Origin: Octopus vulgaris
Lineage: Eukaryota
DNA length: 64,000 bases
Reading direction: 5' to 3'
Assembly: GCA_951406725.2 (NCBI GenBank)
Contig: OX597827.1
Location: forward strand, 64,046,001 to 64,110,000
In this document: in pieces, positions 27,881 to 53,922 of the stretch
Numbering within the stretch: position 1 is the first letter of the stretch
Layout: each line of letters begins with the position of its first letter
Notes under the pieces: model-generated
What the model saw: only the letters and a program-made list of their open reading frames with translations
What the model was told of the DNA's origin: nothing
Database searches by the model: none
Position numbers and translations under genes: made by a program

Positions 27881-30480
27881 TATAAGAGCATTTCCTGAAC
27901 TGAGAGTCTATTAAGACCTTTGATTTGTATTTTTCGGCTTCCTTGAAGACAGAAAACATTTTTTCTGTTTTGCTCAAATTTAGTAGCTATTTGCATCGGT
28001 TTTCTTTGATTCTGATTTTGATATTTCTGTAGTCCCATGACGGATATTTTATACAAATTATAAGAGTATTGCCTGAACTGAGCTCTATTAAGACCTTTGA
28101 TTTGTATTTTTCGGCTTCCTTGAAGACAGAAAACATTTTTTCTGTTTTGCTCAAGTTTAGCAGCTATTTGCATAGGTTTTCTTTGATTCTGATATAGATA
28201 TTTCTGTTGTCCCCTGACGGATATTTTGTACAAATTATAAGAGTATTGCCTGAACTGAGCTCTATTAAGACCTTTGATTTGTATTTTTCGGCGTCCTTGA
28301 AGACTGTTTGCTCAGTTTAGCACTATTTGCATCGGTTTTTGATTCTGATTTTGAATTTCTGTAGTCCATGACGGATATTTCATACAAATTATAAGAATAT
28401 TGCCTGAACTGAGAAAGACATTTTTTTTTCTTCCTTGTTTTTTCTGTTTTGCTCAAGTTTAGCAGCTATTTGCATCGGTTTTCTTTGATTCTGATTTTGA
28501 TATTTCTGTAGTCCCATGACGGATATTTTATACAAATTATAAGAGTATTGCCTGAACTGAGCTCTATTAAGACCTTTGATTTGTATTTTTCGGCTTCCTT
28601 GAAGACAGAAAACATTTTTTCTGTTTTGCTCAAGTTTAGCAGCTATTTGCATCGGTTTTCTTTGATTCTGATTTTGATATTTCTGTAGTCCCATGACGGA
28701 TATTTTATACAAATTATAAGAATATTGCCTGAACTGAGCTCTATTAAGACCTTTGATTTGTATTTTTCGGCTTCCTTGAACAGAAAACATTTTTTCTGTT
28801 TTGCTCAAGTTTAGCAGCTATTTGCATCGGTTTTCTTTGATTCTGATTTTGATATTTCTGTAGTCCCATGACGGATATTTCATACAAATTATAAGAGTAT
28901 TGCCTGAACTGAGCTCTATTAAGACCTTTGATTTGTATTTTTCGGCTTCCTTGAAGACAGAAAACATTTTTTCTGTTTTGCTCAAGTTTAGCAGCTATTT
29001 GCATCGGTTTTCTTTGATTCTGATTTTGATATTTCTGTAGTCCCATGACGGATATTTCATACAAATTATAAGAATATTGCCTGAACTGAGCTCTATTAAG
29101 ACCTTTGATTTGTATTTTTCGGCTTCCTTGAACAGAAAACATTTTTTCTGTTTTGCTCAAGTTTAGCAGCTATTTGCATCGGTTTTCTTTGATTCTGATT
29201 TTGATATTTCTGTAGTCCCATGACGGATATTTTATACAAATTATAAGAGTATTGCCTGAACTGAGCTCTATTAAGACCTTTGATTTGTATTTTTCGGCTT
29301 CCTTGAAGACAGAAAACATTTTTTCTGTTTTGCTCAAGTTTAGCAGCTATTTGCATAGGTTTTCTTTGATTCTGATATAGATATTTCTGTTGTCCCCTGA
29401 CGGATATTTTGTACAAATTATAAGAGTATTGCCTGAACTGAGCTCTATTAAGACCTTTGATTTGTATTTTTCGGCGTCCTTGAAGACAGAAAACATTTTT
29501 TCTGTTTTGCTCAAGTTTAGCAGCTATTTGCATCGGTTTTCTTTGATTCTGATTTTGATATTTCTGTAGTCCCATGACGGATATTTCATACAAATTATAA
29601 GAATATTGCCTGAACTGAGCTCTATTAAGACCTTTGATTTGTATTTTTCGGCTTCCTTGAACAGAAAACATTTTTTCTGTTTTGCTCAAGTTTAGCAGCT
29701 ATTTGCATCGGTTTTCTTTGATTCTGATTTTGATATTTCTGTAGTCCCATGACGGATATTTTATACAAATTATAAGAGTATTGCCTGAACTGAGCTCTAT
29801 TAAGACCTTTGATTTGTATTTTTCGGCTTCCTTGAAGACAGAAAACATTTTTTCTGTTTTGCTCAAGTTTAGCAGCTATTTGCATCGGTTTTCTTTGAAT
29901 TCTGATTTCGATATTTCTGTTGTCCCCTGACGGATATTTTATACAAATTATAAGAGTATTGCCTGAACTGAGGTCTATTAAGACCTTTGATTTGTATTTT
30001 TCGGCTTCCTTGAAGACAGAAAACATTTTTTCTGTTTTGCTCAAGTTTAGCAGCTATTTGCATCGGTTTTCTTTGATTCTGATTTCGATATTTCTGTTGT
30101 CCCCTGACGGATATTTTATACAAATTATAAGAGTATTGCCTGAACTGAGGTCTATTAAGACCTTTGATTTGTATTTTTCGGCTTCCTTGAAGACAGAAAA
30201 CATTTTTTCTGTTTTGCTCAAGTTTAGCAGCTATTTGCATCGGTTTTCTTTGATTCTGATTTTGATATTTCTGTAGTCCCATGACGGATATTTTATACAA
30301 ATTATAAGAGTATTGCCTGAACTGAGGTCTATTAAGAACTTTGATTTGTATTTTTCGGCTTCCTTAAAAAAAAAAGAAAACGGTTTTTATTTTGTTTTGC
30401 TCAAGTTTAGCAGCTATTTGCATCGGTTTTCTTTGATTCTGAGTTAGATATTTCTGTAGTCCCATGACGGATATTTTATA
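27878..30480. repeat. Satellite array, ~14.5 monomers of 175-178 bp
   Basis: CAAATTATAAGAGTATTGCCTGAACTGAG recurs at 28054, 28231, 28533, 28710, 28885, 29062, 29237, 29414 and onward; two shortened units lie near 28.3-28.5 kb. Confidence 0.97.
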
Positions 30481-30723
30481 ACAGTTTTTTAATTGTATAA
30501 GATCTCAACTACCTTCAATTTTCTGGCAGAATCATTAGCGTGTCAGGTAAAATGCTTAGCGGTATTTCGTCCGTCATACATTCTGAGTTCAAATTCCGCC
30601 GAGGACGACTTTGTCTTTCATCCCTTTGGGATCAATATATTAAGTACCAGAGAAACACTGGGTTCGATGTAATTAACTAGTCCCCTCCCCATAATTTTCA
30701 GGTCTTGTGCCTATGTCGAAAGG

Positions 30724-30777
<54 letters not shown>

Positions 30778-30793
30778 GTTATTATTATTATTA

Positions 30794-30860
<67 letters not shown>

Positions 30861-30864
<4 letters not shown>

Positions 30865-31400
30865 TGATATATTTTTTATAGCGTGCTTTCACTTCACTAC
30901 CGAGCCCAGCGCTGTGTGCCTTGGGTATGTGCTGTGATTTGTTGTGATGCTCTGATGGTTATTGTATGGAAAGTGTTCTGCGTAAGATGTGTGCAGTGCC
31001 TAGTAGTGCAATTTTCTGTATGTTATATGTGTTTTGTAGGTCCTGGTGTTTTTGTTATGTATTTGTCTGAATATTTTTTTTATCATGCCTAATGCACCTA
31101 TTACGATAGGAATTGTTTCTGTTTTTAGATTCCACATTCTGGTTACCTCTATTTCCAGGTCTTTGTATTTTGAAAGTTTCTCTATTTCTTTTAGAGACAC
31201 GTTGTCATCTGCTGGTAATTATACATCAATTAGAAAACATTTTTTTCTTCATGATCTCTGACCTCTGGTCTGTTGGCCTTAATTTCTCTATCTGTGTGTA
31301 TTGGCATATCCCAGAGTATGGTTGCTTTCTCGTTTTATGTGACCATTTCTGGTGGTGCCTATACTATCTTTTTTCTGTTGTTATTTCATAATGTTGCCAT
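30861..31400 (-). mobile_element. R4/Dong-type non-LTR 3' fragment (RLE domain)
   Basis: EKLSKYKDLEIEVTRMWNLKTETIPIVIGALG...; abuts (TTA)n. Confidence 0.8.
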
Positions 31401-31471
31401 CTTTTTTCTGTTGTTATTTCATAATGTTGTTATGTTATTTCATAATGTTGTTGTTATTATTATTATTATTA

Positions 31472-33380
31472 TGTGAAATTTCACAGCTTATTTTGCTGGA
31501 TATGATGGAAAGTGTTCAGCTGTCCGCAGCCAGCAGACTAAGGTGAAACTTGTTTACTGGTCATGCTTGAAGAACCCTGCGAAGAATTCTTTTAGCTCCA
31601 AGCAACGCTGATTTTTGTAGGTGTTCTACCTTCATCCATTCACAGATCCTCTTCAGCCTTGTTCGTAGTTGAGTGCTGATACTTCGAAGTGAACCAATTA
31701 CTATTTGTTTTGCGTTTACTCTCAAATTTTGAGGGGTTGTATTTTTAGCCTTTCATCTGTTTTCTTCGCAATCCTGGGTTGAAATGAACACGATGGCTCA
31801 ATCAGCAAGCAAATTCGATTTTCCTTCTCTGTTATTGTAATGTCTAGCTTGTTATGTTTTATGTTTTTATCCATTTGACTTCGAAAATTTGCATTTTTGC
31901 GTCTCAAAGCCTCTTTCTACACGATGATTCTACCAAGTACGTCTTGCTTCAAGCCACCATTTCTGACAAAGCTTCTAGTGTAAAACTTTCAGAACTTGAT
32001 CATGTCTCCATTTCTTATATTCTCCCTGATCATTCTTGGGACATTTTGCAACAATGTGTGCCATTGTTTCATCCCAAATTCCACATACTCTGCATTTTAC
32101 CGACACTTCCCCATATACATATTTTCTTAAGCTGTTTGTCCGCAGTGCTTGATCTTGAGATGTTATAATAAGGATTCCTGCTTCTTTTTTCAGGTCCCTC
32201 CTCTTCAGCCAAGCCAGGATCTTGTTCCACATACATTCTTAGTGTCTTTCCAAAACTGAACATGCAAAGGCTTCTCATAAAACTGTTTATCATGTTCTCT
32301 TTTAATTTCATTTCTGTCCTTTTCTCTTTTTCTGGTTGTGCTCACCTGTTCTATAGTCATTGCCTTTTGTAAGTTTTCCGTGTTGTTCTGTAAGAATTAT
32401 AGAAGGTTTTATTTTTTCTCTCCATCTGTCTACACTCTTTCGTGGAGGCACAATGGCCCAGTGGTTAGGGCAGCGGACTCGCGGTCGTATGATCGCGGTT
32501 TCGATTCCCAGACCGGGCGTTGTGTGAGTGTTTATTGAGCGTAAACATCTAAAGCTCCACGAGGCTCCGGCAGGGATGGTGGTGATCCCTGCTGTACTCT
32601 TTCTCCACAACTTTCTCTCACTCTTACTTCCTGTTTCTGTTGTACATGTATTTCAAAGGGCCGGCCTTGTCACTCTCTGTGTCACGCTGAATGTCCCCGA
32701 GAACTACGTTAAGGGTACACGTGTCTGTGGAGTGCTCAGCCACTTACACGTTAATTTCACGAGCAGGCTGTTCCGTTGAACGGATCAACCGGAACCCTCA
32801 TCGTCGTAACCGACGGAGTGCTTCCATCTACACTCTTTCACACTAATAATACCTCTTCCACACTGGTCTTTCTTCAAAGACAACCAGTTAATATCTGCTT
32901 TCGGACAGAGGACTCCATACATTGTCAATAGCTTTCTAGTTTTTTTCTGTCATGTTTCTGTATGATGCTCTTGGTTCAATCTACAATTCCAACTTCATAT
33001 CTGATTATCGGTACTTCTCTCGCATTTATTGCTTCAATAATATATGTTTTTTGAATTCAGCTGTGACTGCAATATTTTTCTCACTCTCCTTGAAAACTCC
33101 CTACTGGTGTTTTGTTTTATCTCTTCATGCTTTATTTCATATGCTTCCAGTATTCATAAATGCTTATAACGCTGTCTTTTCACAACTGCTTTCACTGTTT
33201 GCCCATTTGGCATTTCAATTCCCTGACTTGCTTCAAATTTTCCTCATTTCATTAACAAATAGCATAGCGTACTTTTCAAACCCGAATTCCATTCCTACAT
33301 CATTTGAAAATTGCAAACAGTATGTACAAGATTTCTCAGCTGTTTCTCATTTTTCGCATAAAGCTTTATGTCATCCATGA
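31472..33380 (-). mobile_element. Decayed R4/Dong-type non-LTR ORF (RT, CCHC, RLE) interrupted by a SINE
   Basis: MDDIKLYAKNEKQL (RT xMDD), QDQALRTN..KCRVCG..ETMAHIVAKC (zinc knuckle), KHNKLDITI..ICLLIE (RLE). Confidence 0.8.
32442..32826 (+). mobile_element. Full-length tRNA-derived SINE (family B) with 13-bp TSD
   Basis: A box TGGCCCAGTGGT, B box GTTTCGATTCCC; TSD TCTACACTCTTTC at 32429-32441 and 32827-32839. Related copies at ~5200-5530, 8597-8800, 16670-16968(-) and 18845-19226(-). Confidence 0.9.
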
Positions 33381-34110
33381 CTTTGTCTTTCATCCATTCG
33401 GGGTCGATAAATGAAGTACCAGTAACACACTGGGGTCGATATAATCGACTTAATCCGTTTGTCTGTCCTTGTTTGTCTTCTCTGTGTTTAGCCCCTTGTG
33501 GGTAGTAAAGAAATACTGCATATGAAAGCTTTAGAACGCCAGGTGAAATGCTTTGCGGTATTTCATCTGCCGCTACGTCCTGAGTTCTAATTCCACCGAG
33601 GTCAACTTTGCCTTTCATCCTTTCGGTGTCGATTAAATAAGTACCGGTTACACACTGGGGTCGATATAATCGACTTAATCCATGTGTCTGTCCTTGTTTA
33701 TCCCCTCTATGTTTAGCCCCTTGTGGGTAGTAAAGAAATAGGTATTTCGTCTGCCGTTACGTCCTGAGTTCAAATTCCGCCGAGATCGACTTTGCCTTTC
33801 ATCCTTTCGAGGTCAATTAAATAAGTACCGGTTACACACTGGGGTCGATATAATCGACTTAATCCATGTGTCTGTCCTTATTTATCCCCTCTGTGTTTAG
33901 CCCCTTGTGGGTAGTAAAGAAATAGGTATTTCGTCTGCCGTTACGTCCTGAGTTCAAATTCCGCCGAGATCGACTTTGCCTTTCATCCTTTCGGGGTCAA
34001 TTAAATAAGTAGCAGTTACGCACTGGGGTCGATATAATCGACTTAATCCATTTGTCTGTCCTTGTTTATCCCCTCTGTGTTTAGCTCCTTGTGGGTAGTA
34101 AAGAAATAGG
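33380..34110 (+). mobile_element. Head-to-tail tandem array of SINE family C bodies (~184-bp unit)
   Basis: B-box-like GAGTTCAAATTCC and the CCTTTCATCCTTTCGGGGTCGATAAA core repeat about 4 times. Other copies at 7390-7620(-), 19298-19700, 25930-26600(-), 34271-34500, 58010-58245. Confidence 0.85.
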
Positions 34111-35968
34111 TATTACGTTTCTTTCGATCTATGTATGTACCTACTTTCATTTTGATCTATGTATCTACTTCAGTTTCGATGTATGCATCAGTCTATTATG
34201 AAAATACTGATAAACATTTTACCTCTATCTTCAACTATAGAAAAGTAACAGTAACACTCACAGCTATTTGCGGCGAGGTGGCAGACACGTTAGCGCACCG
34301 GGCGGAATGCTTAGCGGTATTTCGTCTGTCGTCACGTTCTGAGTTCAAATTCCACCGAGGTCGACTTTGCCTTTCATCCTTTCGGGGTCGATAAATAAAA
34401 GTACCAGTTTCGCACTGGGGTCGATGTAATCGACTTAATCCCTTTGTCTGTCCTTGTTTGCCCTCTCTATGTTTAGCCCCTTGTGGGCAATAAAGAAATA
34501 TATTTGCTGAGAGAGAGAGAGAGAAAGAGACTGACAGAGCTCCCTCTGTCAGACAGAATAACTGTCACACAGATAGATAGAGAGACATTTCTTTTTGCAA
34601 TTATCATATATCGGCTTTATCGTATATCGTCGAAAACGAAAAGTTTTCCAGCATTTTCCATATGAAAATGGTTCCATTGTCTTTCATTATTATTCTTTAT
34701 CTACTCCCTTCCTTCACTCAATCTATCTCTCTAAATCTCTCTCTTTTCTCCTCCCTCCTCTATGACTTCTTGCCTCTAATTGTCCTCCTCCTTTTAACGT
34801 GGTATATTCTCTTACTTCTCCGTGCTATCAATCTCCCCCCTCTGTCTCTTTCACTCTATCTTACTTTTTCCTCTTAGCCTCTCACTTCAACTATACTTCC
34901 TCTGCTTCTGTCCTTCCCCTTTCTTCACCCACCTCAACAATACCTCCTCTGCTTAATACCTTTTATTTCTCTTTTTCTTTGTACCTCCCCCTTCACCTTT
35001 TTGTACCTCTTCCTTTGAAGCGTGACACACACCACAGGTACGTACGTACAAAATCAAAAAGTTGGCGTATTAAAATTATTGATTATTATCATAATTATTA
35101 TCATTCTTATCATTAACATTATAATTATTTTATTGTTAGGCCCCCCTCCCCCCATCATCATCATCATCGACATTCACAAGTTCCTCTTGAAAAAGGAAAG
35201 TGAGAATAAAGAGGGAAGTTCTACCCTGCCACCCCAGTAAATTTGTTGAAAGGTGAGTGAATGTGGCAACGATGGCCTGTGTGAATGAAGCTACACTGAA
35301 CTTTCGTTTGTAAACTGGAGGAATTGCGAAGGAGAAAGGCACCTGCTGAAGCGCATCTTGTAGTCAGGATAACCAGAATGTGTGGGGTTCCTCGGTTGTC
35401 CCCATGTGGAACTTCCCACTTTAGGGAATTTCTTATTGTTTAACTGTTTTGTTAATTACATTATTTACAATTGATGGATATTTGTCCTCATCTTGTTTGT
35501 TGATAACACAATGTTTTGGATGATATACCCTCCAGCCTTCATCAGGAAATTTCGAACCTGGGTTCTCTTTCCTAAGGTATTTTTTGGATGTTATTATCAT
35601 CATCATCATCATTATTATTATTATTATTAGTATTAGTATTATTATTATTGTTAGTATTCAGGTCACTGCTAGGAATCGAACTCGGAATCTTGGGGTTAGT
35701 AGCCTGTGCTCTTAACCACTACACCATATGCCCATTTCAACAAACAAGATGAGGACAAATCTGTCGAAAGTAAATAATGTAAATAATGCACATAATTCCT
35801 CATCTCTTAAATATAGAACTGTTTTGTTAATTGTTTATTGTTAGTTGTTGTATACACGGTATTGTTCAATATTCTGCTTGTCCATTGTATTGTATGGTCC
35901 CTAATTGTTTTTGTGTTCGGCCCTTGTGGCCAATAAAAGTAAGAATTATTATGATCACTATTATTATA

Positions 35969-36004
<36 letters not shown>

Positions 36005-36350
36005 TTATGTTTGACTTCTGCTTTACATTTATACAAGTTGGCTCCAAGTTCATGTTGGTGTTATGCCTAGGGTGCCATATATTTGGTTTTGTACATAGTG
36101 TTGTTCTAGAGAATGTTTAAAAAAAACATATGAAAATTATGTGTTTGTTTTAAAATTTGAGATTACATAGACAGTATTTTACGTAGAATATGGGCAGTTC
36201 CCATGAGCACTATCTTTTAAATTTCTGCCATTTTGGTGTTTCCTGGTATCTGAGTTAGGGAGCAATCAGCCCCTTTTGCTATCATTTCCAGGGCACCTAT
36301 GACAACAGATATTGTTTTAGTTTTCATGTTCTAAATATTGCTCATTTATT
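36005..36350 (-). mobile_element. R4/Dong-type 3' fragment; sister copy at 37005-37310
   Basis: Minus strand VIGALEMIAK..PKMAEI.KIVLMGTAHILRKILSM*; TTA-flanked. Confidence 0.65.
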
Positions 36351-37310
36351 ATTATTATTATTATTATTATGTGAGAGAGCAGTGCATGCCGTCAAAGTGA
36401 CACTGGGGTACAAATATATGAAGCCCAGTATACTCATCATGACTAACCGTCTGATTAGGGTACTCTAGGCACATGCATCACAACCATATGAGCGTGATAT
36501 GGTGATCTCATATCAAGATAAGCAGCACATGACCTTGCAGGTGGGGCCCAGTTAGAATATTCTTCTGGTCGAGTAACCCACCCTGCTAAAAAGGTCCCTG
36601 AATAAGCGCTGTTTAAGGATGTTGAACGAAACACCCGTTTCCAGAGGTGAATTGTTCAAACCCCAAAGAATCCATCTCAACACATGGCTATGATGCTCCC
36701 CCACTACTTCTGCTCATGATCAAAGATGCACATATCGTCAGCCACTAAGAGACATGCTCAACTGGTTAAGGTCAAACAACTGACAAGCAAATCTGTGGTA
36801 TTGAGCAGAATATTTGTTGTAACCCATCTTTTATACCAAGACAAAACAATGTACATGATAACGCTTCCAATTAGTTAAGATCAGATGCCATGAGAGCCAC
36901 TGCTTGGTACTGCATCAGGGCATAGCCACTGCCTGGTACTGCATCAGGGTGTTTATTATTATTAATATTATTATTATTATTATTAGTAGTAGTAGTAGTA
37001 GTATTATTTTATGTTTGATTTTTGCTTTACATTTGTACAAGTTGGCTCCAAGTCTCACCCAGAGACCTCAAGAGACAACAAGTTGGAAGTTCATGTTGGT
37101 GTTATGCCTAGGGTGCCATGTATTTGGTTTTGTACATAGTGTTGTTCTAGAGAATGTTTAAGAAACCATAAGAAAATTATGTGTTTGTTTTAAAACTTGA
37201 GATTACATAGAAAGTATTTTGCATAGGATATGAGCAGTTCCCATGAGCATTATCTTTTGAATTTCTGCCATTTTGGGGTTTCCTGGTATCTGAGCTAGGT
37301 TAAAATCAGC

Positions 37311-37359
<49 letters not shown>

Positions 37360-37779
37360 TATTGCAGTGTCTTTATAGTGTCTGAAAGTTTAGAATGTTT
37401 GTATGCTTCAAAAATGTTGAGAATGGATGGTATCACCCTAAGTTTGAAGCTGTGATTCGGAGGTCAGAAACTGAAGAAGAAACTTTCCCCACATTGTTCC
37501 GGGAGATCTTGGTTCATGTAGCTCTGCAATTATCCCTCAAAGTCCTTGAGTATCAGGATAACATTGTCATCATCACTGATGTGTACTAAGTATATCTTCT
37601 TTGTTATATTTTATACCATATTTTATCATTTTATTGTATTTAGGCACAGGAGTGGCTGTGTGGTAAGTAGCTTCCTTACCAACCACATGGTTCTGGGTTC
37701 AGTCCCACTGTGTGACACCTTGGGCAAGTGTCTTCTACTATAGCCTGAAGCCAACCAAAGCCTTGTGAGTGGATATAAG

Positions 37780-37810
<31 letters not shown>

Positions 37811-38786
37811 CTGTGTTTGTCCCCACCAACATCGCTTGATTACCTATGCTGGTGTGTTTATGTCTCCATAACTTAGCAGTTTGGCAAAAGGGCATGATAG
37901 AATAAGTACTAGGCTTACAAAGAATAAGTCCTGGGGTTGATTTGCTCGACTAAAGGCAGTGCTCCAGCATGGCCACAGTCAATGACTGAAACAAGTAAAA
38001 GAGTAAAGAGAGTAAGAGCATAAACATTCATGCTTTATAATGTCGTTGCATTTCTCCTCTCATCCATCACCTTCATGGAAAATAAAATAAATCATTGTTT
38101 TTTTTTTATTATTGTATGTCTGTACATTTCTTGTGTTAACATTTAATTTGCTATTAAGGGATTCAAAAAGAAATTAAAAAAAAAAATCTAATATACGGAT
38201 AATTAAGTGTCGTCAAATATCACCCCATGCACTTTATATATACATATACATACATACATACATACATACATGTGTGTATGAGCTTGCGAACAAAAGCAGA
38301 GATTCACTGTAGCATTTACGTCTCTATAGAAGTGTGACTCACTGATTGAACGTAGTCATTCGATAAATAGCGATCAATAAAAAAAAAACCTAGGCCAATT
38401 TACATTTTGTTGTTGATTTAGTTCTCTGAATTTTTTCAAGATTTTGGTTTGGATGGCCCCTGTCTTTTGAATGAAACCAGTAAGAATAAATAAAAGAATT
38501 GTAATTCTAAATGTTTTATTATAATAATTTCATTTAGAAAAGAGTATTTATCAGGTGGTTAGTTATTGTCTTTTGTTATATATTGGGTGGGTCATTACGC
38601 CAATAATAAATACATGCACTGGTTCCATTTCAGTCCTTTGTTATTTATTTGTTAATTGGTCCACTATGTAACCAATTAAATAATCGACTGTTTCATTAAT
38701 CATTCTGTTAATTAATCAGTCAGATTTCTCAAATTCTTCTCATCGCCATTTGAGACATTGTCGATATCACAAACCAAACCAAATAC

Positions 38787-39495
38787 AGATCTTTTCCTTT
38801 TGAACGGCACTTTTCAACACAATTTCTAGTTAACTAAACACTTTGAAATTTCGTATACTGGTAGAATGTGTCAAAATAAAACATTTTTTTCTCTTGGCTT
38901 TCTTGATAAAATTGTAATTCGTTTGTTTAACGTAGTTTAATTTTTCAAATTAAATGAATCGCCAATGAATTGCCTCTAATTGAGCTAAAATCATTTGCTG
39001 CGTCTAAATTGTTTTTCTTAATTGTTAAATTAATTTAATTGTTACGCGTGTAAAAAAACAAAAGGCTAAAACGAAAGCAATGGAAAATAATTTAAACAAT
39101 TAACAAACAAAATAATTCTATAATTTTATACACACGCTTTCTGTACGTATACGGAAAGCGTGTATTATGGAAAGCATGTGTTACGGAAAGTGTGTGTATA
39201 AAATTAACAATTAAGAAAAAAAAATTTAGGGTCAGGGTTAGGGTGAGGTTTAGGGTTAGTGACAGGATGTTGTCTCAGTTTTAGACGCAGCAAATGGTTT
39301 TAGCTCAATTAGAGGCAATTCATTGGTTAAAATTTGAAAAATTAAACTACGTTAAACAAACAAATTACAATTTTATCAAGAAAACCAAGAGAAAAAAATA
39401 TTTTATTTTGACACATTCTACCAGTATACAAAGTTTTAAAGTGTTTAGTTAATTAGAAATTGTGTTGACATGTGCTGTTCAAAAGGAAAAGATCC
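38787..39495. mobile_element. GGATC-TIR element with 8-bp TSD and internal (TTAGGG)-like repeats, inserted in the gene's 3' flank
   Basis: TIR (A/G)GATCTTTTCCTTTTGAAC with ~200-bp inverted arms; TSD CCAAATAC at 38779-38786 and 39496-39503; absent from the paralogous flank at ~24735. Confidence 0.9.
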
Positions 39496-39569
39496 CCAAA
39501 TACAAAGCAGACATATAGCGATTTTATATTTCCGGTTTTAGTAATTTTAGCCAAATCAGTATGCGCACT

Positions 39570-40286
39570 TTAATCACCACCCTCCTCCTCCTCCTCCACT
39601 TCTTCTTCTTCCTCCTCCTCTGCCTCCTCCTCCTCCTCTTCCGCTGCCTCCTCCTCCTCCTCTTCCGCTGCCTCCTCCTCCTCTTCCGCTGCCTCCTCCT
39701 CCTCTTCCGCTGCCTCCTCCTCCTCCTCTTCTGCTGCCTCCTCCTCCACCTCTTCTGCTGCCTCCTCCTCCACCTCTTCCGCTGCCTCCTCCTCCACCTC
39801 TTCCGCTGCGTCCCCCTCCACCTCTTCCGCTGCCTCCTGCTCCACCTCTTCCTCCTCTTTCTCTTCCTCCTCCTCTTTCTCCTCTTCCTCTTTCTCTTTC
39901 TCCTCTTCCTCTTTCTCTTTCTCCTCCTCCTCTTTCTCTTTCTCCTCCTCCTCTTTCTCTCTCTCCTCTCTCTCCTCTCTCTCTCTTTCCCATCTCTCTT
40001 TATTCTCTTCCCATATCTCTCTATCCTCTCTCGCTGTTTCCCATCTCTCTCTTTCCCATCTCTCTCTTTCCCATCTCTCTCTCTCCTCCTCCTCACTGTA
40101 ATCACTACTGCTTCCATCACTGCTACTTGAACCATGATCATGTTTTTTCTTCTTTTTCTTTTTATGTTTTTTCGTCTTTTCATCCTTCACCTCCAAGGAA
40201 TAAACTACCACCTTTGGGGTGTCTTTGTCATGATATGGAATCATTTCTTCATCAGTTCGGCGACAACAAAATATTGCAGATCCCAT
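39570..40286 (-). CDS. Orphan single-coding-exon protein (238 aa): N-terminal MGSAIFCC, poly-Lys patch, Ser/Asp linker, ERERW and EEEAA-repeat acidic tail
   Basis: Open ORF with AAAA-ATG-G start context. A polypyrimidine/TTTTAACAG acceptor lies 15 nt upstream (exon start 40301). The non-repetitive N-terminal ~40 aa, the acceptor and ~250 bp of 3' flank are conserved in a paralog at 24.5-25.3 kb. Confidence 0.6.
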   Translation of the reverse strand: MGSAIFCCRRTDEEMIPYHDKDTPKVVVYSLEVKDEKTKKHKKKKKKKHDHGSSSSDGSSSDYSEEEERERWERERWERERWETAREDREIWEENKERWEREREEREEREKEEEEKEKEEEEKEKEEEEKEKEEEEKEEEEEKEEEEVEQEAAEEVEGDAAEEVEEEAAEEVEEEAAEEVEEEAAEEEEEEAAEEEEEAAEEEEEAAEEEEEEAAEEEEEEAEEEEEEEVEEEEEGGD

Positions 40287-40500
40287 TTTTAAAAAAAATC
40301 TCTGTTAAAAACATAGATAAATAAAAAAAAAATTAAGTGACTTGCTTAAACAAGTATAACAACAAAATCAACAAAAGTAACAAGATATTTACATTATTTA
40401 CATTTGACGGATATTTGTCCTCATCTTGTTTGTTGTTGAATGTAAATAATGTAAACAATGTAAATAATGTACATAATTCCTCATCTCTTAACCCTTTCAT

Positions 40501-41527
40501 GGATCTTTTCATTTTGATGGCCAAATTTTCCTAGTTAACTAAACAATTTGAAACTTCGTATACTGGTAGAATGTGTCAAAAGAAAACATTATTGCAAACA
40601 AAATTGAAAACAAAATTGTAATTCGTAACTAAAACGTAGTTTAATTTTAAGAATTTTAACCAATGAAATCGCAGCATTCAAGCTCAAAATATTTACCTCT
40701 TCTTCTATCTTCTACATGTGCTAGAAATAACAGCTATATCTCTTAAATCGATTAATTTCGTCGCCCAATAAAAATATTAACGATATTTTTTAATATTTTC
40801 TTTATTTTTTTTACCGAAAAGGCTTCTCCGATGGTTTGGAAGGGCCAAAAACAACAAAAACAAAACAATAATATGCCTAAATCGGTCTAGAGGGTGCGCG
40901 TGGAGTGTGGGTCATATTGTAAAAATTTGCGAAATATTTTTTCATAAAAGGATGCCCCAGCTTGTCGGAGGCTGTGATATAAATTGGGAAAAAAATCCTC
41001 AACACCAGTGCATAATTAGTACTTAATTTATCGACCCCGAAACGATGAAACATTGACCCCCCACCCTTCTGGTTTATTTACCTTTTGTGCAAATTTGTTG
41101 CGGCAAGGGGCAAAACACGAACGTGTAATGTATGCTTGTGTGTGTATGTATATGTCCGTTTGTATGTGTGTGTACGCTTATATATTAATTACTATGTGCT
41201 TGTGCAAATGTATATGCATGTGTTTGAGAGAGAGAGAGAGAGAGAGTGTGTGTGTGTGTGTGTGTCGTGCGTCTGCTATATTTCTTTATCAATATCGATA
41301 ACGCAGCAATGCCGGGATTTCATTGGTTAAAATTCAAAGATGTTGGGATTTCATTGGTTAAAATTCGCAGATTTAAACTACATTTAAACTTATAAAATAC
41401 ATTTTTCTCAAAAAAACAAGTTGAAATTAGTGTTTTCTTTTGAGACACTCTACCAGTATACGAAGTTTCAAATTATTTAATTAACTAGAAAAATCTGAAA
41501 AATTTGGCCATCAAAATGAAAAGATCC
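40501..41527. mobile_element. GGATC-TIR element with 8-bp TSD
   Basis: TIR GGATCTTTTCATTTTGATGGCCAAATTTT; TSD CCTTTCAT at 40493-40500 and 41528-41535. Confidence 0.9.
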
Positions 41528-42218
41528 CCTTTCATTACTGTATTTACTTTGAGATGCTCTGTGTTTCTTTCAATTACTTGAAATATAACAAAGAATTTAG
41601 TAAAATAACTTAGTTATCATTAAGCTAGTGTTAGGAACATAAATTGTGACTAAGGTTTGGTGGAAGATTTTAATTCAAAACCTATGAAAGAAAACATTTG
41701 TACTCAGAGCCAGAGCTGGTTTCAGCCCAGTTGGTAACAAAAGGCACATGAGTGGCTGTGTGGTAAGTAGCTTGCTAACCAACCACATGGTTCCGGGTTC
41801 AGTCCCACTGCGTGGCAACTTGGGCAAGTGTCTTCTGCTATAGCCCCAGGCCGACCAATGCCTTGTGAGTGGATTTGGTAGACGGAAACTGAAAGAAGCC
41901 CATCGTATATATGTATATATGTGTATGTGTCTGTGTGTTTGTTTGTTTGTGTTTGTCCCCTTAGCATTGCTTGACAACCGATGCTGGTGTGTTTATGTGC
42001 CCATTACTTAGCGGTTCGGCAAAAGAGACCGATAGAATAAGTACTAGGCTTACAAAAGAATAAGTCCCGGGGTCGAGTTGCTTGATTAAAGGCGGTGCTC
42101 CAGCATGGCCACAGTCAAATGACTGAAACAAGTAAAAGAGTAAAGAGTAAAAGGGGTTAGAACTGTAGCAAACAGATACATTTTACAATAAAGAAGAGAA
42201 GAGGGTTCATAGACTGGC

Positions 42219-42259
<41 letters not shown>

Positions 42260-42309
42260 GGTGGAGAAAGAGAGACATGCACACATGCATGAGCACACAC
42301 AGTCACTCA

Positions 42310-42605
42310 CAGGTTACTGGCATAATGAAAGAGGGTTTTAGAGGTAAACATTATTCCAGTGATGAGGAAGTGAAAACTATAGTGAAGAACTGGCTCAAAG
42401 AACAGTCAATAGAATTTTATGGAGTAGGGATACATGCTCTCATTTGAAGGTGGAACATTGCTATTGAGAGAAACTGTGACTATGTTGAGAAGTAGGGATG
42501 TGATCCACAGAGGCCCAGCTTCATTTTGATGTATGGTACATGTTCCTGTGTTGGTGATCATTACTGTCCTAAACCATATGGCATTACTTTTTGACTCAAC
42601 CTCCT
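42310..42605 (+). mobile_element. Mariner 3' end fragment
   Basis: MKEGFRGKHYSSDEEVKTIVKNWLKEQ..FY..GI..L..RW...DYVEK*, followed by TIR-like ATTACTTTTTGACTCAACCTCCTA. Confidence 0.8.
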
Positions 42606-42619
42606 ATATACATACATAC

Positions 42620-42653
<34 letters not shown>

Positions 42654-43534
42654 GTATGCATATATATATTCTTTTATTTGTTTCAGTCATGTGACTGTGG
42701 CCATGCTGGAGCACGTCCTTTAGTTGAGCAAATCGACCCCAGGACTTATTCTTTGTAAACCTAGTACTTGCTGAATTGCTGAGTTATGGGGACGTAAAGA
42801 CACCAGTATCGGTTGTCAAGTAATGTTGGGGGGGACAAACACACGCACATACACACACACACACACATACACTCACACACATACACACACACGCATATAA
42901 ACACACATACACACATATATGTACACATATATACGACGGGCTTCTTTCAGTTTCCGTCTACCAAATCCACTTGCAAGGGTTTGGTCAGCCTGAGGTTATA
43001 GTAGAAGACACTTGCCCAGCGTGCCACTCAGTGATACTGAACCTGAAACCATGTGGTTGGTAAGCAAGCTTCTTACTACACAGGGGGCTGGCCAGATTGG
43101 AGCAATCTCAAGATTAATCAGCCAAAATTGCGAGCCAAAACAGGAGTGGCTGTGTGGTAAGTAGCTTGCTTACCAACCACATGGTTCTGGGTTCATTTCC
43201 ACTGTGTGGCACATTGGGCATGTGTCTTCTAGTATAACCTCGGGCCGACCAAAGCCTTGTGAGTGGATTTGGTAGATAGAAACTGAAAGAAGCCTGTCGT
43301 ATATATCTATCTATATATATAGATGTATGTGTGTATGTGTTTATGCGTTTGTGTTTGTCCTCCCAACATCACCAATGGTGTGTTTGCATCCCTGTAACTT
43401 AGCGGTTCGGCAAAAGAGATCAATAGAATAAGTACTAGGCTTACAAACAATAAGTCCTGGCGTCAATTTTCTTGATTAAAGGCAGTGCTCCAGCATGGCT
43501 AGTCAAATGACTGTAACAAATAAAAGATAGAAGA

Positions 43535-43577
<43 letters not shown>

Positions 43578-43881
43578 AATATATGTGGTTTAGATATGTA
43601 TATCTACCGACAAGCACCTGCAAAAATATACACATGAATCTATGTGTATATACAGCCATGTGTATATATACTCTTTTACTTGTTTCAGTCATTCGACTGC
43701 GGCCATGCTGGAGCACCGCCTTTAATCGAGCAATTCGACCCCAGGACTTATTCTTTTTTAAGCCCAGTACTTATTCTATCAGTCTCTTTTGCCGAACTGC
43801 TAAATAACGGGGACATAAACACACCAGCATCGGTTGTCAAGCAATGCTAGGGGGACAAACACACTCACACAAACACACACA

Positions 43882-43929
<48 letters not shown>

Positions 43930-44183
43930 TACGATGGGCTTCTTTCAGTTTCCATCTACCAAATCCACTCACAAGGCTTTGGTTGGCCTGAGGCTATAGT
44001 AGAAGACACTTGCCCAAGGTGCCACGCGGTGGGACTGAACCCAGAAGCATGTGGCTGGTAAACAAGCTACTTACCACACAGCCACTCCTGCACCTGTTCG
44101 TATATATGCATATGTATTTTTGTGTTTATATGTATGTGTCTGCAAATGTGTTTGTAAGTATACACACATGCACCACACACACA

Positions 44184-45422
44184 CTCACATGGAAGAAGTA
44201 AATAGACACCCCCTAATACATCGTTTTATGTATATTCTAACTTGTAAAGGTTTATATTTTTTATTACTTGACATGTTTGTCTTTCAGATTCTATATGTGA
44301 CTGTTTAATCGTTCCCTGTACAAAAGATGCCTTAGAACTGTCTGAATTTCAAGGAGGCCATATTTTGTGGCATCCTGAAGGTGGACATAGTCAGCGTAAA
44401 ATCGCAGAAAACCTTGGGATTGTGCTTTCTACAGTTAATAAAGTGATTGTGCAATTCACTAGAGAGGGGAAGGAGTCCACATCACCTCACCCAGATCAAC
44501 CAGGGCCTTCTGACAGGACCCTCTGACAGGACCCTCTGACAGGATCTGTCTCTTTGCTAAGAGAAGTGTGGAGGATAATCCTCATTGTAAGGCCTCTGAC
44601 TTAGCAGAAAAAGTTGGTGTCAGTCCCAGAACAGCTGTCAGGTATCTCCGCAAACTTGGTTACTATGGCAGAGCAGCAAGGAAGCCACTTCTTTGACCAG
44701 CCAGCATCAAGCAGCGAAAAGATTGGGCCAGTGAGATGATGGAGAGGCCACTAGCATTTTGGGACACTGTTGTATTTTCTGATGAGTCCAGATTTACTGT
44801 ATTTCATGACAGTGGTTGAGTGAGGAACTGGAGACTCTGTGATCAAGAATTCGAGGTGAAAAAATTGCAGACAACAGCGGCTATTCTGTGATGGTCTGGG
44901 GAGTAATTTGGAGCAATGGTTGATCAGAGCTGGTGAAGTGTGAGGGAAACATAAACTCAGATAAATACATGTCCATATTGCAGAAAAGACTCCTTCCAAT
45001 CTGCAGCAGTGAAATGATTAAAGAAGACTATTTATGGAAGATGGGGCTCCTTGTCACACAGCTAAAATGAGAATCATACCGAAAAGCTTCCGTGGCCAAG
45101 CCAATCGTCAGATATGAACCCTATTGAACACTTCTGGGACATAATGGACAGGACACTTCATAAAAAGAACAAGAAAGCATCTTCAAAGTCAGATCTTTCG
45201 AGATTACTGCATGAAACTTGGCAAGAAATTCCGCAAGAGAATATTCATCATCTGATCAGTAACATGCCTAATATGGTCCTTGCATTGAAAAATGCAAAGA
45301 GCATGTCTACTAAATATTAAATATTCACATTATAACAATTAATATATAATTTGAATGCATGATTTCAGATTTAAAGAAACTTTAATGGTTAGAAGGGTGT
45401 CTATTTACTTCTGTCATGTCTG
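44184..45422 (+). mobile_element. Full-length decayed Tc1-like DDE transposon
   Basis: TIRs ACATG..AGAAGTAAATAGACACCC / GGGTGTCTATTTACTTCTGTCATGT; motifs WDTVVFSDESRF, MEDGAPCH, WPSQSSDMNPIEHFW; stops and frameshifts. Confidence 0.9.
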
Positions 45423-45440
45423 TATATAGCAGGTCTGTAT

Positions 45441-46743
45441 ATAGGTCGTCAAGTATGAAATTTGAAGATAGATAAATGGTAAACTTTGACAGCTGCTCAT
45501 TTTATGCCATTATTATATTTTGACAAACTTAATTTTTTTTTAGAAAGGCTGACACATCTATTTCTTTTTTCTAACTCATTTTGCGCTTTATAAAGTATTT
45601 ATAAATCGTTTTTTGCTATTTTTGTTTTGAGATGGAAGTCGGAAATTTGTACAGTTTTGAAATATGAGTTCTTTCTTGGAAATACAGCATCACAGACAGT
45701 TCGAAATATTAATGGAGTATTTCATTCTAATGTTATTACACAGCAGACTGTATCAAATTGGTTTGCAAAATTTTGTTCTGGTAACTTTGAGCTCACAAAT
45801 GAGCAACACGGTCAACCAGAAACAAAGGTGGATAATGTCGAACTGAAAGCCACTGTCGAGTCAGATCCATTTCAAAGTGGCTGGTAACTACCATTGGTGT
45901 TTGATGTTAGCAAGCAAACGATATTGACTCACCTAGTTCAAATCAGTAAAGTGAAAAAGTTGGATAAGTGGTTTCCACATGAACTCAATGGAAATTAGAA
46001 ACAGCAACGTTTGGAAGCCTGGATTATGCTACTTTCCCATCACAAAAATGAATCCTTTTTGAATTGAATTGTAATATGTGATGAGAAATGGATCCAATAT
46101 GACAACCGTAAATGTTCAATACAATGGTTGCACAAAGACGAGCCTCCAAAACACAGTCCCAAAAGCAAAATTCGTCAAAAGAATCTGATGGTGTGTGTTT
46201 GGTGGTCTGGCGCATGTATGATCTATTATGGTTTCATTAAACCTGGCTCATCAATCATGGCTAAAGTATACTGCAGCCAACTGGACAACAAGAAATCCCT
46301 GATGCAGAAACTTACAAAAAAAAAAAAAAAACTAGCCTAGATTAGTCAACAGATCCACTCCTATTTTATTGCAAGACAGTGCCAAACAACACATTGCAAA
46401 AATGACATTGGCAAAACAATAGTTGTTGGAGTTGGAAGTTCTCCATCAGCTACCATACTCACCTGATCTTGCCCCCACTGACTACCACTTCTTCAAGAAT
46501 TTGGACGACTTTTTGATAGGAAAAAAAATTTAATTCCGCCGATGCTGTAAAACAGGTCTTCCAAGATTTTATTGACTCTAGGTTGCCAGGCTTTTACAGT
46601 TCTGGGCTGGACAAGCTACTGCTGAAATGGCAAAAGTGTATTGACAGTATGGGTGCATACTTTGAGGAATAAAACTATTCCTTGCATTTATAAAATATGA
46701 GCAAACTTTTTCTTTTCTACAAATTTCATACTTGACAACCTAA
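45441..46743 (+). mobile_element. Full-length decayed mariner (Hsmar1/cecropia-like)
   Basis: TIRs TAGGTCGTCAAGTATGAAATTTG / CAAATTTCATACTTGACAACCTA; motifs WFPHEL, VICDEKW, PYSPDLAPTDYHFF. Confidence 0.92.
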
Positions 46744-46744
46744 C

Positions 46745-46846
<102 letters not shown>

Positions 46847-47869
46847 GGGTAAAATTAATTAATCAATTAATAATTAATAATTTTACCAAGTAGTTCGGTA
46901 TGTTAAAAGGATCATTATCGGTAAACTTATGCAAAAATTCTATAATTATGAGCATAATTATAATTAGGGTTCAGCAAAACTTGCTTCACCACATACCGAA
47001 ATTTAGAAATAGCAGTTGAAATACTATTCTACTATCACAAGATATCTCCCAGACAGCAATACTCAACAACTCACGCAGGTAAAGAGAAAAAATAACGAAT
47101 CTACCCGGCTCTGTTTAACTGTATGTGTGTTTTGGGGTTAGAGAGTTGTAAAAAATGTAAAATCATATTTCTACTCACTCATTCCCTTTGTGAGTACAGT
47201 ATTTCAAATTTAAAATTTTAGAGCACTGATAATTAACATATGTATTCGACCAAGGCCACCAAAAAGCACACACATATATATATATATGTATATACATATA
47301 TATATATATAATAATAAGGGTTTTTTGGAACAAGTTGCTTAAATCACATACCGAAAATATTAGAAATAGCAGCCAAAGGACTACTATTTTGGCTGCTATT
47401 TCTAATATTTTCGGTATGTGGTTTAAGCAACTTGTTGCAAAAAACCCTTATTATTATAATTATATAAATTTTTTACCGATTATGGTCCTTTTCCATACCA
47501 AAATACTACTAGGTGAAATTTGTTGATTTTATTAAATTAATTATATTTCCCCCTACATCTATCTATATATGCATGGTGCAACGGACATGTAAAAGCACCA
47601 TGCGCTCGCGTCCGTTGCCAGCCTCGCCTGGCCCCCGTGCCGGTGACACGTAAAAGCACCATCCGTTCGTGGCCGTTTGCCAGCTCCGTCTGGCACCTGT
47701 GCGGGTGGCACGTAAAAAGCACCCACTACACTCATGGAGTGGTTGGCGTTAGGGAGGGCATCCAGCCGTAGAAACACTGCCAGATCTGACTGGGCCTGAT
47801 GCGGCCTTCCAGCTTCACAGACCCCAGTTGAACCGTCCAACCCATGCTAGCATGGAAAACGGACGATAA

Positions 47870-47904
<35 letters not shown>

Positions 47905-48216
47905 ATATCCAAAGACCAGTACTTCCGAATTCAAACAGACGAATGAGATCTCGTGAGTTGTTGAGTATTACTGCTGGGAGATAGCTTATGATAGCAGAAT
48001 AGTATTTTAACTGCTATTTCTAAGTAAATTTCAGTACATGGTGAAGCAAGTTTTGCTGAACCTTAATTATAATTAGGCTTATAATTATAGAATTTTTGTA
48101 TATACATATATATAGATTAGAGGCTTTGAGTGACCCGTCTGTTTTTTTGTGTCGTCTCTTTGTGTGTTTTTGCGTTCTTGTCCCACTTTGTAATTTATAT
48201 TTTATATTGAATTTCT

Positions 48217-48268
<52 letters not shown>

Positions 48269-48274
48269 CAACTG

Positions 48275-48394
48275 CTACCACAATTTGTAATCCTTCTATT
48301 TTAACATTGTGCCATTAGAACACCAACACAAGTTAGATTAAATACAGAAACCTACTTCATTGAAAAATATAAGCCAAAACTTAACCTTTTCTAG
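48275..48394 (+). mobile_element. Penelope-like element GIY-YIG endonuclease C-terminus
   Basis: PQFVILLF*HC...RLNTETYFIEKYKPKLN matches the E..FI....P.LN end of PLE GIY-YIG domains; follows (TA)n. Confidence 0.6.
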
Positions 48395-48464
48395 CATTTT
48401 TAAGGAACTTAGCTCATTGAAAAATATAAAGCAAAACTTAACCACTTAACCAACATATATGATA

Positions 48465-48835
48465 ATCGACATAGCATGCCCTGGTGTAAACAGGATCAAT
48501 GTGAAAGAAGAAAAAATGCACAACTATGAGGATTTAAGTTGAGAAATACAAAGATTGTGGTCAATGAAGAGAGTAGATGTGATACCAATAATAATTGGTG
48601 CACTTGGAAGTATCAGCAATCAGCTACAAACATGGTTGAAAAAGATTTTGTAGGTAGATTTTGCAAGTTTGTAGGTAGAACACCTACAAAAACCAGCATT
48701 GCTTGGAACAGTAAGAATTCTACATAGGGTTCTTGAAGCATGACCAGTAAACAAGTATCACCTTAGTCAGCTGGCTGCGGACAGCTGACACTTTCCCTCA
48801 TACCCAGCAAAATAAGCTGTGAATTTTAATACAAC
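48465..48835 (+). mobile_element. R4/Dong-type 3' fragment
   Basis: IIDIACPG..NYEDL..EIQRLWSMK.VDVIPIIIGALG..LQKPALLGTVRILHRVL, followed by (ACA)n(ATA)n. Confidence 0.8.
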
Positions 48836-49061
48836 AACAACAACAACAATAATAAAAATTATAATAATAATGATGATAATAATACTAAGTACTGGCTCTC
48901 ATGGTTTCTCATCCTAACTGATTGGAATTGTTATCATGTACATAGTTTTTTTTGTTTTTTGGTATAAAGGATGGGCTACAGTAAATATAATACTAATATG
49001 TGTGAAATTCTGTCTGTCCCTCTGTCCAGGATCCCTGTATCTCTGTCCTACATTATACATG

Positions 49062-49146
<85 letters not shown>

Positions 49147-49582
49147 CCCATCCGATCGTAGCTGTTCGCCAGCCTCGTCTGGCACCTGTGTCGGTGGCAC
49201 ATAAGAAAAACACCGAAAACACCATATCCGAGCGTGGCCGTCTGCCAGCCTCGTCTGGCACCTGTGTCGGTGGCACATAAAAAAACACCATCCGAGCGTG
49301 GCCGTCTGCCAGCCTCGTCTGGCACCTGTGTCGGTGGCACATAAAAAACACCATCCGAGCGTGGCCGTCTGCCAGCCTCGTCTGGCACCTGTGTCGGTGG
49401 CACATAAAATCACCCACTACACTCTCGGAGTGGTTGGCGTTAGGAAGGGCATCCAGCTGTAGAAACACTGCCAGATCTGACTGGCCTGGTGTAGCCTTCG
49501 GGCTTGCCAGACCCCAGTTGAACTGTCCAACCCATGCTAGCATGGAAAGCGGACGTTAAACGATGATGATGATGATGATGAT
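49147..49582 (+). mobile_element. SINE-like element with internal ~63-bp tandem repeats and (GAT)n tail
   Basis: 3' end CAACCCATGCTAGCATGGAAAGCGGACGTTAAACGATGATG. Copies at 3210-3470(-), 47570-47905, 52870-53395, 56160-56605, 60061-60497(-). Confidence 0.8.
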
Positions 49583-49762
49583 ATATATATAATCATATCA
49601 AAGGGAAATGGAATTTAATTAAAATTAAAATATTCAGTCAAAATTTACATTTCCAGTGGTCTAACATGCAAAAAAAAAATTAGTCAAGAAGACTATATAT
49701 TAATCATACGATATAGTGCATATTTAGTAGCCTTGTTTGTCTCCTGTTGAATATGTTTAACC

Positions 49763-49854
49763 CTAGGTTGGACCTTGCTGAAGAAGATCAGATCTTGTGA
49801 GTTCCCCCTGACTCGCTAAAAGAAGATCAGAAACCAATTGGTCCAGTGTACTAG
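49763..49854 (+). ncRNA. Type I hammerhead ribozyme-like motif
   Basis: CUGAAGA (49778) A-GAUC..UCUUGUGAGU/ACUCGC..AAGA-GAUC-A GAAAC (49830) CAAUUG GUC (49841). Stem III is the palindrome ACCAAUUGGU; stem I is weak. Confidence 0.55.
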
Positions 49855-49967
49855 ATGGTAAATGTTTTTCATCCGTTATTTTTGTGGTTTACAGAACCTA
49901 GCTGTTCATTCTAATGTGTTGAATTCACGTAAAGTGGATTCCTTATGTGTATAAACATGCACTATAT

Positions 49968-50010
<43 letters not shown>

Positions 50011-51722: not shown

Positions 51723-51821
51723 TTCTTTTACTTTCGACATATGTTTCGAAAGCAACATTGGTTTTACTTCAAAGGAATAAATGGTGTAAAATGCAATCTT
51801 CTCATCAGGAAAGAAAGAGAA
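51723..51821 (-). ncRNA. Type I hammerhead ribozyme motif (Penelope-like)
   Basis: Minus strand: UUCUCUUUCUUUC-CUGAUGA-[~50-nt stem II GAAGAUUG..UUUUAC/GUAAAA..CAAU..CUUUC]-GAAAC-AUAU-GUC-GAAAGUAAAAGAA. Stem I has 11/13 pairs; stem III is the palindrome ACAUAUGU. Confidence 0.75.
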
Positions 51822-52821
51822 CCTGGAACATAATTGAGAGCAGCCACGGTATCTGCCTGTATAATATACTCCCCCAAACTCTCACTGTCTCTCTCTCTCT
51901 CACATGCACATAGTACCACAGAAAGTCAGCCGTAACATTTTATTATTAGTCGGACAGTAGTAATTGTAAAAACACTTACTTGTTTAAATACTATCAGCTA
52001 GGTGCAAGGTCTTCTCTGGACTAGCTTCTCCGTCTAGTAAGAGTAGATTTAGGTGAAACGATTTAAAACATACACAACCGAGTGTTGATAGAGTAATACA
52101 ACTGTATGCTTACGTGCCTCCATGCACATGAAAACACACATTCACACTCACACAAACATGTATATATATATATTATATCATGTATACTTATAAATATATT
52201 TGATGTATGTGTTTATGTAAACAAATTGATGTGTGTGTATGTCTTTGTTTAAAAAAAAGTCATGTATTTGAGTATATTTGACAATCTTGACAATAAATAC
52301 TTGACTCACTTAACAGGTTATGTGGGAACTGATGACTCTAAAACAATGTCACTTGTAATGCATTGTTAAAATTTTGGTGAAGGCGTGGCTGTGTGGTAAG
52401 AAGCTTGTTTTCCAACCACATAGTTCAGGATTCAATCCCACTATGTGGCATCTTGGGCAAGTGACTTCTACTAAAGCCTCAGGTCAATCAAAGCTATATA
52501 TATGACCATGGGACTGCACCTAGAAAGTTACCCTCCGAGGCACAAGTCCGGGCAAGGTTGTTTATGGAGGACCAGCAGTCACCTGTGCATACCGACCTCC
52601 CCACTCCACGCCACCAGTGTTATCCAAGGGAAAGGCAAAGGGGCCGATACACTTTGGCACCCGTGACGTTGCAACTCATTTCTACAGCTGAGGGAACTGG
52701 AGCAACATGAAATAAAGTGTCTTGCTCAAGAATACAATACGCAGCCTGGTCTGGGATTCGAACTCACAACCTCATGGTCGTAAGCTTGACGTTCTCACCA
52801 TTGAGCCGTGTGCCCTCACTG

Positions 52822-52865
<44 letters not shown>

Positions 52866-53603: not shown

Positions 53604-53640
<37 letters not shown>

Positions 53641-53869: not shown

Positions 53870-53922
<53 letters not shown>

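Follow-up and report, generated by a model that had tools for sequence, protein, structure and literature searches.

A four-copy octopus gene family, probably coding, with a Cys-Cys head and triplet-repeat tails

In a 64,000-nucleotide stretch of the Octopus vulgaris genome (the window), a long minus-strand reading frame lies among repeats and reads as a short cysteine-bearing head, a lysine block, and a very long acidic tail. An earlier note took this frame for the gene of a lipid-anchored, highly acidic orphan protein. The questions are whether it is a gene at all and, if it is, where in the cell its product would act.

Copy A and its relatives in the octopus genome

The coding sequence of this frame, here called copy A, occupies 39570..40286 (-) and encodes 238 aa followed by TAA (39572-39570). 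It is preceded by an acceptor-like intron end (40302..40337, -) made up of a branch-point-like CTTAAT (40337-40332), a T-rich tract, and CAG (40304-40302), and then by a 15-nt leader (40287..40301, -) that is open in copy A and is likely part of the 5′ UTR; the ATG, at 40286, stands in the context AAAAATGG. The N-terminal head (residues 1-13; 40248..40286, -) contains Gly2 and Cys7-Cys8, with the Cys pair at 40268-40263, and lacks 9 nt, in frame, that the other copies have. Behind it lie a Lys block (residues 34-48; 40143..40187, -), in which 11 of the 15 residues are Lys and which contains Thr-Lys-Lys, and a Ser/Asp block (residues 53-64; 40095..40130, -). The Lys block is shorter than that of copy C by a 48-nt deletion. 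Three ERERW units follow as a 15-bp repeat seen in copy A only (40041..40085, -), and the protein ends in a poly-Glu tail (39573..39989, -) of about 138 residues of E/A/K/V repeats, built from 21-24-bp units and carrying a net charge of about -83. The whole protein has 114 Glu, a pI of 4.13, and a net charge of -86; its Lys, Ser/Asp, and tail blocks carry +7, -8, and -83 vs +12, -13, and -86 in copy C. Five of its sites fit the kinase motif S/T-x-x-D/E. The elements that the earlier note had listed (ORF, acceptor, 15-nt leader, MGSAIFCCRR, KKHKKKKKKK, SSSSDGSSSD, ERERW x3, E/A/K tail, and TAA) are all present.

About 75 nt behind the stop lies a ~710-bp non-autonomous DNA transposon (38787..39495, strand unassigned). 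Its terminal inverted repeats are long, its target duplication measures 8 bp, and copy C does not have it. Related transposon copies flank the ORF on both sides (38787-39495 and 40470-41500). The 3′ flank common to the family (38272..38787, -), partly a dispersed repeat, matches copy C at 93% and copy D at 81%, and in copy A it contains AATAAA at 38520. A 9-bp minisatellite of the AATGTAAAT type flanks both A and C on the intron side (40439-40477 in the window) and occurs again at ~24400, just behind the end of the copy B 3′ homology.

The animal's own 2.8-Gb genome was searched three times with DNA and twice with protein, and this recovered four head copies, a count that is a lower bound, all on the minus strand within ~70 kb of contig C14. 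Copy C (G000:C14:64035316-64035924, -; 202 aa) and copy D (G000:C14:64016003-64016569, -; 188 aa) are intact and lie outside the window. Copy B (24851..25220, -) was found as the in-window paralogue of copy A (E 9e-6) and is the one that the earlier note had held to conserve the acceptor, the N terminus, and the 3′ flank. All three are indeed homologous, but copy B is broken, a point the note does not mention: it has TTG for ATG, Pro at position 2, and a 1-nt insertion in an A run near 25035 (~codon 61), and its short Gly/Ser tail is read in the shifted frame. The common 3′ flank breaks off there at about 24523. By its sequence, copy B is probably a pseudogene.

Self-comparison of 264 kb resolves the copies into two colinear units that lie 48-58 kb apart in offset and contain one D/B-type and one C/A-type copy apiece. 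The first unit, with copies C and D, runs from about window -30350 to 18465, and the second unit of this tandem segmental duplication covers 24523..64000 (no strand assigned) and continues ~6 kb past the window. The units diverge by 3.5% (171 of 4899 sites over eleven flank blocks). The C/A type is separated from the D/B type by an older duplication, and the heads of C and D differ at 32 of 135 sites. Upstream of copy B, at 27873-30480, stands an array of ~14 copies of a 177-bp unit (94-96% matches), placed between two blocks common to the copy D unit.

All four copies share CTTAA and CAG/AGATTT, the latter 15-17 nt ahead of the start. Because B, C, and D each have an in-frame TAA after the acceptor and ahead of the start, the ATG is likely the N terminus and there is likely one coding exon. 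The heads begin MGSAI-FCCRR (A), MASAIRKLICCCQ (C), and MPSALQNLICCRR (D), and 20 of 42 head positions are invariant across the four copies. The order of blocks is also common to the copies: Cys-Cys head, Lys block, Asp/Ser block, triplet-repeat tail. In every copy Cys-Cys falls within the first 12 residues, behind hydrophobic residues, with Arg-Arg next in three of the four; the Lys block contains S/T-K-K in all three intact copies. The tails are of two types, both rebuilt by triplet-repeat expansion: A and C have poly-Glu, from GAG/GAA, whereas D and B have Gly/Ser/Phe, from GGT/AGT/GAT. The description "highly acidic" thus holds for A and C and does not extend to the family, because intact copy D has a Gly/Ser tail and a net charge of -11.

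Putative membrane location and a nuclear alternative

If the family codes for protein, a matter taken up in the next section, we tentatively favor a palmitoylated protein that sits at the inner membrane leaflet and whose tail is polyanionic or flexible; membrane location comes out at about half the probability of coding itself. The single coding exon would yield a predicted disordered protein whose Cys-Cys head would be S-palmitoylated, presumably without myristoylation. The Lys block would bind acidic lipids of the inner leaflet, phosphorylation of S/T-K-K within it might release the protein from the membrane, and the long acidic tail could serve as a charged spacer or a cation-binding brush. 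This reading is favored because the Cys pair, the Lys block with S/T-K-K, and the acidic block are common to the copies, which have no signal peptide or membrane helix, and have precedents in GAP-43 and Plasmodium. GAP-43 is anchored by palmitate on Cys3/Cys4 (PMC7494789), and Lys-rich repeats that were born by expansion in Plasmodium suffice to target the cell periphery (PMC5207086). Counting against a membrane location, a Lys-rich targeting sequence can be hidden by an acidic repeat next to it, as in Hyp12 (PMC5207086), and the Lys block is without the hydrophobic residues and IQ motif of known effector domains (PMC7494789). A bolder version would have octopuses build their own GAP-43-like family from scratch, with a palmitoylated head, a Lys block, and interchangeable slippage-grafted tails by which charge and release from the membrane are tuned; the proteins would be used at the cortex of neurons that grow or regenerate. 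This we consider highly improbable.

Since chance alone retains both Cys in 26% of simulations, and nucleolar proteins show Lys blocks next to D/E tracts, a nuclear role is a close rival, which we regard as possible if unlikely. The Lys block would then direct import and partition into the nucleolus, and the D/E tract would serve histones, protamines, or ribosomal proteins as a polyanionic chaperone or as part of a condensate. The K block beside Ser/Asp and Glu tracts in A and C matches both nucleolar disordered-region patterns of PMC10936679, and copy C, with 1 Arg in 202 residues, fits the paucity of Arg described there; K-K/R-x-K/R motifs occur in all three intact copies. A nucleolar role leaves the Cys-Cys head and the 20 invariant head positions unexplained, however, and copy D is without a long acidic tail (net -7 beyond residue 100). 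Such scaffolds are also old, whereas the octopus family is without a detectable relative.

Coding sequence or by-product of repeats

The four-copy family is probably a protein-coding gene. The contrary explanation is that these are transcribed or intronic triplet microsatellites, segmentally duplicated and drifting, in which the frame is open as a side effect of repeats rich in GA and GGT, and we judge it improbable on the evidence that follows. The copy A repeat is open in the other two sense frames as well, for 220 and 141 codons, so an open tail means little, and the question is whether the non-repetitive head behaves as coding. Moreover, an acceptor-like site followed by ATG and at least 100 open codons occurs at 18 distinct places in 264 kb (41 overlapping rows), as would suit an ORF of no function. 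The Arg-rich, protamine-like +1 frame (the 220 open codons) was considered and rejected, as it has 3-4 head-region stops in every copy and is Val-rich in D.

Over the first 46 codons, frame 0 is free of stops in all four copies, and the other sense frames have 3-5 stops each. Absence of stops alone has P of about 0.2. Retention of start and frame together, over the 46-codon head and 32-39 substitutions between the subfamilies, has a simulated neutral P of 0.002-0.012, which speaks against a mere by-product; this joint P covers survival of the start, no stop, and no frameshift, leaves copy B out, and is driven mainly by the indel rate of flank blocks that were picked by BLAST and abound in 1-nt slips. 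Between A and C, the head indels are 9, 3, 48, and 18 nt long (the last two in repeats), and in the flanks 2 of 24 indels are multiples of three. The C and D heads, at 24% divergence, show zero indels in 45 codons vs 6 indels in the common 3′ flank at 17%, which again argues against drift.

The dN/dS of the head ranges from 0.26 to 1.51 over six pairs, where those with A include one misaligned codon that was later dropped, and none differs from 1. A ratio about 1, a copy B that is already broken, and tails open in several frames are what drifting repeats would give. Since copy B is a broken product of DNA duplication and head dN/dS is near 1, likeness alone is no evidence of protein constraint. 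The earlier note had argued from the paralogue against a chance microsatellite ORF; that argument has to be moved to the two intact copies outside the window, which are the better evidence. The A and C heads differ at 10 of 117 sites (8.5%) vs 3.5% in the flanks (P 0.009), and 8 of 9 changed codons alter the residue, a pattern that also tells against the absence of a protein. It is a soft hint of fast protein change, since CpG-type transitions account for 3 of the 10 differences: without CpG-type changes, 7 of 117 sites differ vs about 4 expected.

Transcription of the copy A exon is likely, judging from its presence in contigs of runs guessed to be RNA. The stretch 40080-40301 is present in 20 of 24 listed runs, of which 18 carry all 18 sampled words (9 studies, 5 organism labels), and the remaining 4 have next to none of the words. 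Fourteen of the 20 exon-carrying runs are RNA by an automated guess (5 studies, 11-110 million letters each), and among the listed exon-carrying runs none is recorded as RNA. The contigs of all four examined runs (4 studies, RNA by the same guess) cover 40095-40185, a near-unique stretch in which 8 of 192 31-mers recur in 264 kb. Cover is missing from two bins that span the acceptor and the first part of the coding exon, and a joint into 40301 is absent among 15 of 55 joints listed; the records are filtered, so both are uninformative on splicing. One joint, 42713 to 40133, was found in one run with 37 foreign letters between its parts and was set aside as spurious. As to a first exon, no low-copy upstream block common to both subfamilies was found, and one donor-like site in six scanned blocks, ~3 kb beyond the window, is a candidate.

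The claim that this is an orphan, disordered, acidic ORF and probably a real gene holds up, with no relative in any protein collection searched. Word-seeded protein searches gave 136 candidates for head A, 0 at E 10, and 1 for head D, 0 confirmed; a 4-row profile against longer proteins gave 1733 candidates, 0 confirmed. The profile also matched 3 of 1.84 billion representatives, long tandem-repeat proteins that match 16-18 of its positions many times over, and we rejected these as repeat artefacts. Viral and metagenome contigs gave 601 and 590 pattern matches, none of which was confirmed. The best PDB hit had E 0.51, Pfam gave 0 families for A and C and 2 sub-threshold composition hits for D, and literature searches returned no paper on the four-copy octopus head family. 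In the ESM Atlas, residues 1-70 of A had no usable feature match (TM at most 0.38), and copy D scored 0.83 and 0.76, under the bar. The Atlas does contain copy A letter for letter, in an entry that may derive from the same Octopus vulgaris genome, and its model has pTM 0.23. Our model of residues 1-60 (pLDDT 60, pTM 0.13, 4-row alignment) shows no fold and fits either disorder or a shallow alignment. A collection of 15 billion proteins held no exact A, C, or D, although both annotated neighbors (below) are in it, which is a point for those who would see no protein here. The best reading is of a young, fast-evolving orphan, apparently restricted to octopus as far as protein collections and the animal's own genome indicate.

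The two annotated neighbors are related single-coding-exon genes of 112 and 104 aa at G000:C14:64000247-64000582 (+) (L034:4247-4582) and 63962989-63963300 (+) (L030:6989-7300). They are 39% identical over 70 residues, have an acceptor ~20 nt before the ATG, and each contain a Gly/Ala-rich hydrophobic segment; they correspond to the hypothetical Octopus vulgaris proteins CAI9733204.1 and CAI9733203.1, which form one-member clusters with no Pfam family above the cut-off. Their distances from copy D are 16 and 54 kb, so genes without known domains may form a wider cluster here.

Elsewhere in the neighborhood, 63 of 75 selected ORFs were scanned and gave transposon domains only, plus one C2H2 ORF and one composition hit. 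The window contains a broken LINE-type retrotransposon (11175-14485, +; reverse transcriptase domain, E 1.8e-28). Between D and C lies an LTR retrotransposon in several frames (G000:C14:64030429-64033954, L037:4429-7954, +) with zinc knuckle, protease, RT/RNase H-like, and integrase domains, and an element with RT and GIY-YIG is found at L036:7570-9891. The C2H2 zinc-finger ORF (G000:C14:64206659-64208158, L048:6659-8158, -; 500 codons), ~120 kb from copy A, is the nearest conserved-domain gene seen.

A real gene could also encode a rapidly changing intracellular protein, tissue-specific and with a structural or reproductive role, whose cysteines cross-link and bear no lipid, although we think this quite improbable. 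The cluster would then be built like the arrays of single-coding-exon genes that join a short common head to unlike repeat bodies. All copies do keep one layout despite bodies as unlike as poly-Glu and Gly/Ser/Phe, the head changes faster than its flanks, the two neighbors described above are further single-coding-exon genes without known domains, and arrays of restricted genes are tied to particular tissues in coleoid genomes (PMC9068888). With 1 Gln per protein in the family, however, there is little for transglutaminase cross-linking, there is no signal peptide, and the rate excess is weaker once CpG-type changes are set aside. Neither a signal peptide nor a membrane helix was found (best 19-residue hydropathy -0.09 to 0.44), and a secreted biomineral protein was rejected for lack of a signal peptide.

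Finally, the dual anchor that the earlier note took as established, in which copy A would be N-myristoylated on Gly2 and then palmitoylated as in BASP1 and MARCKS, is barely credible: A does have Gly2, Cys7-Cys8, and Arg9-Arg10, and Ser after Gly is allowed, but Gly2 is found in 1 of 4 copies (Ala, Pro, and Pro elsewhere), and Ile and Phe, which come fourth and fifth once Met is removed, fit neither the residues listed in PMC4692089 nor the MGXXX[S/T] consensus in PMC6478813. The Gly2 codon, GGA, is unique to A (GCA and CCT elsewhere) and one base from Ala. With Gly2 unique to A and Ile/Phe off consensus, myristoylation is unsupported. The note had proposed acylation predictors, and the myristoylation pattern is negative in all three intact copies.

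Comparison with known systems

If the family is coding, it is a small one largely missed by protein collections, in which microsatellite slippage rewrites most of the protein, so that a single cluster joins the same head to poly-Glu or to poly-Gly tails. If membrane location and neuronal expression were both true, the family would parallel the growth-cone proteins of vertebrates by convergence, in the invertebrate with the largest known nervous system, and its natural variants would make the functions of head and tail separable.

The earlier note had likened the protein to GAP-43, BASP1, and MARCKS. As a guess at how it might work this is reasonable, and little likelier than a nucleolar role; judged by its sequence, the four-copy family is not a member. 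The octopus proteins resemble all three in being acidic, predicted disordered, and 20-30 kDa, and in having a basic block with a possible Ser/Thr switch (S/T-K-K in the three intact copies, a candidate PKC site). They share with GAP-43 an N-terminal Cys pair, present in all four copies, with the chance retention given above. The pI values of A, C, and D (4.13, 4.05, and 4.57) compare with 4.46-4.64 in GAP-43, BASP1, and MARCKS (PMC6478813). They differ from BASP1 and MARCKS in missing the myristoylation consensus (A has MGSAIF) and from GAP-43, which uses an IQ motif to bind calmodulin, in that the motif is absent from all three intact copies. Unlike the basic and hydrophobic effector domain of the three proteins, the Lys block of copy A is without a hydrophobic residue. 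There is no sequence homology to them (Pfam and the other searches giving no true hit, as above), the charge of copy A is far more extreme, and the sister subfamily has swapped in a Gly/Ser tail.

Plasmodium GARP and Hyp12 (PMC5207086) are alike in architecture: a disordered chain with a Lys-rich block and an acidic repeat tail, both resized by repeat expansion. They are exported parasite proteins with a signal sequence, whereas the octopus proteins have a Cys-Cys head, no signal peptide, and no homology to them. The nucleolar proteins with K blocks and D/E tracts (PMC10936679) share the succession of Lys, then Asp/Ser, then Glu blocks with A and C, D being without the long tract; the octopus copies differ in the Cys-Cys head and in being without a folded domain or known homologue.

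Orphan low-complexity arrays are already a known feature of coleoid genomes. The restricted arrays described in PMC9068888 (reflectins, suckerins, and histidine-rich beak proteins) are likewise tandem low-complexity genes unlike known proteins; the octopus family differs from them in having only four copies and an unlike composition. The squid arrays in Supplementary Table 4 of that paper might bear on the octopus family. From these comparisons, we conclude that the four-copy family files best, on what its sequence suggests, as a small new case of the taxonomically restricted tandem arrays of coleoids (PMC9068888).
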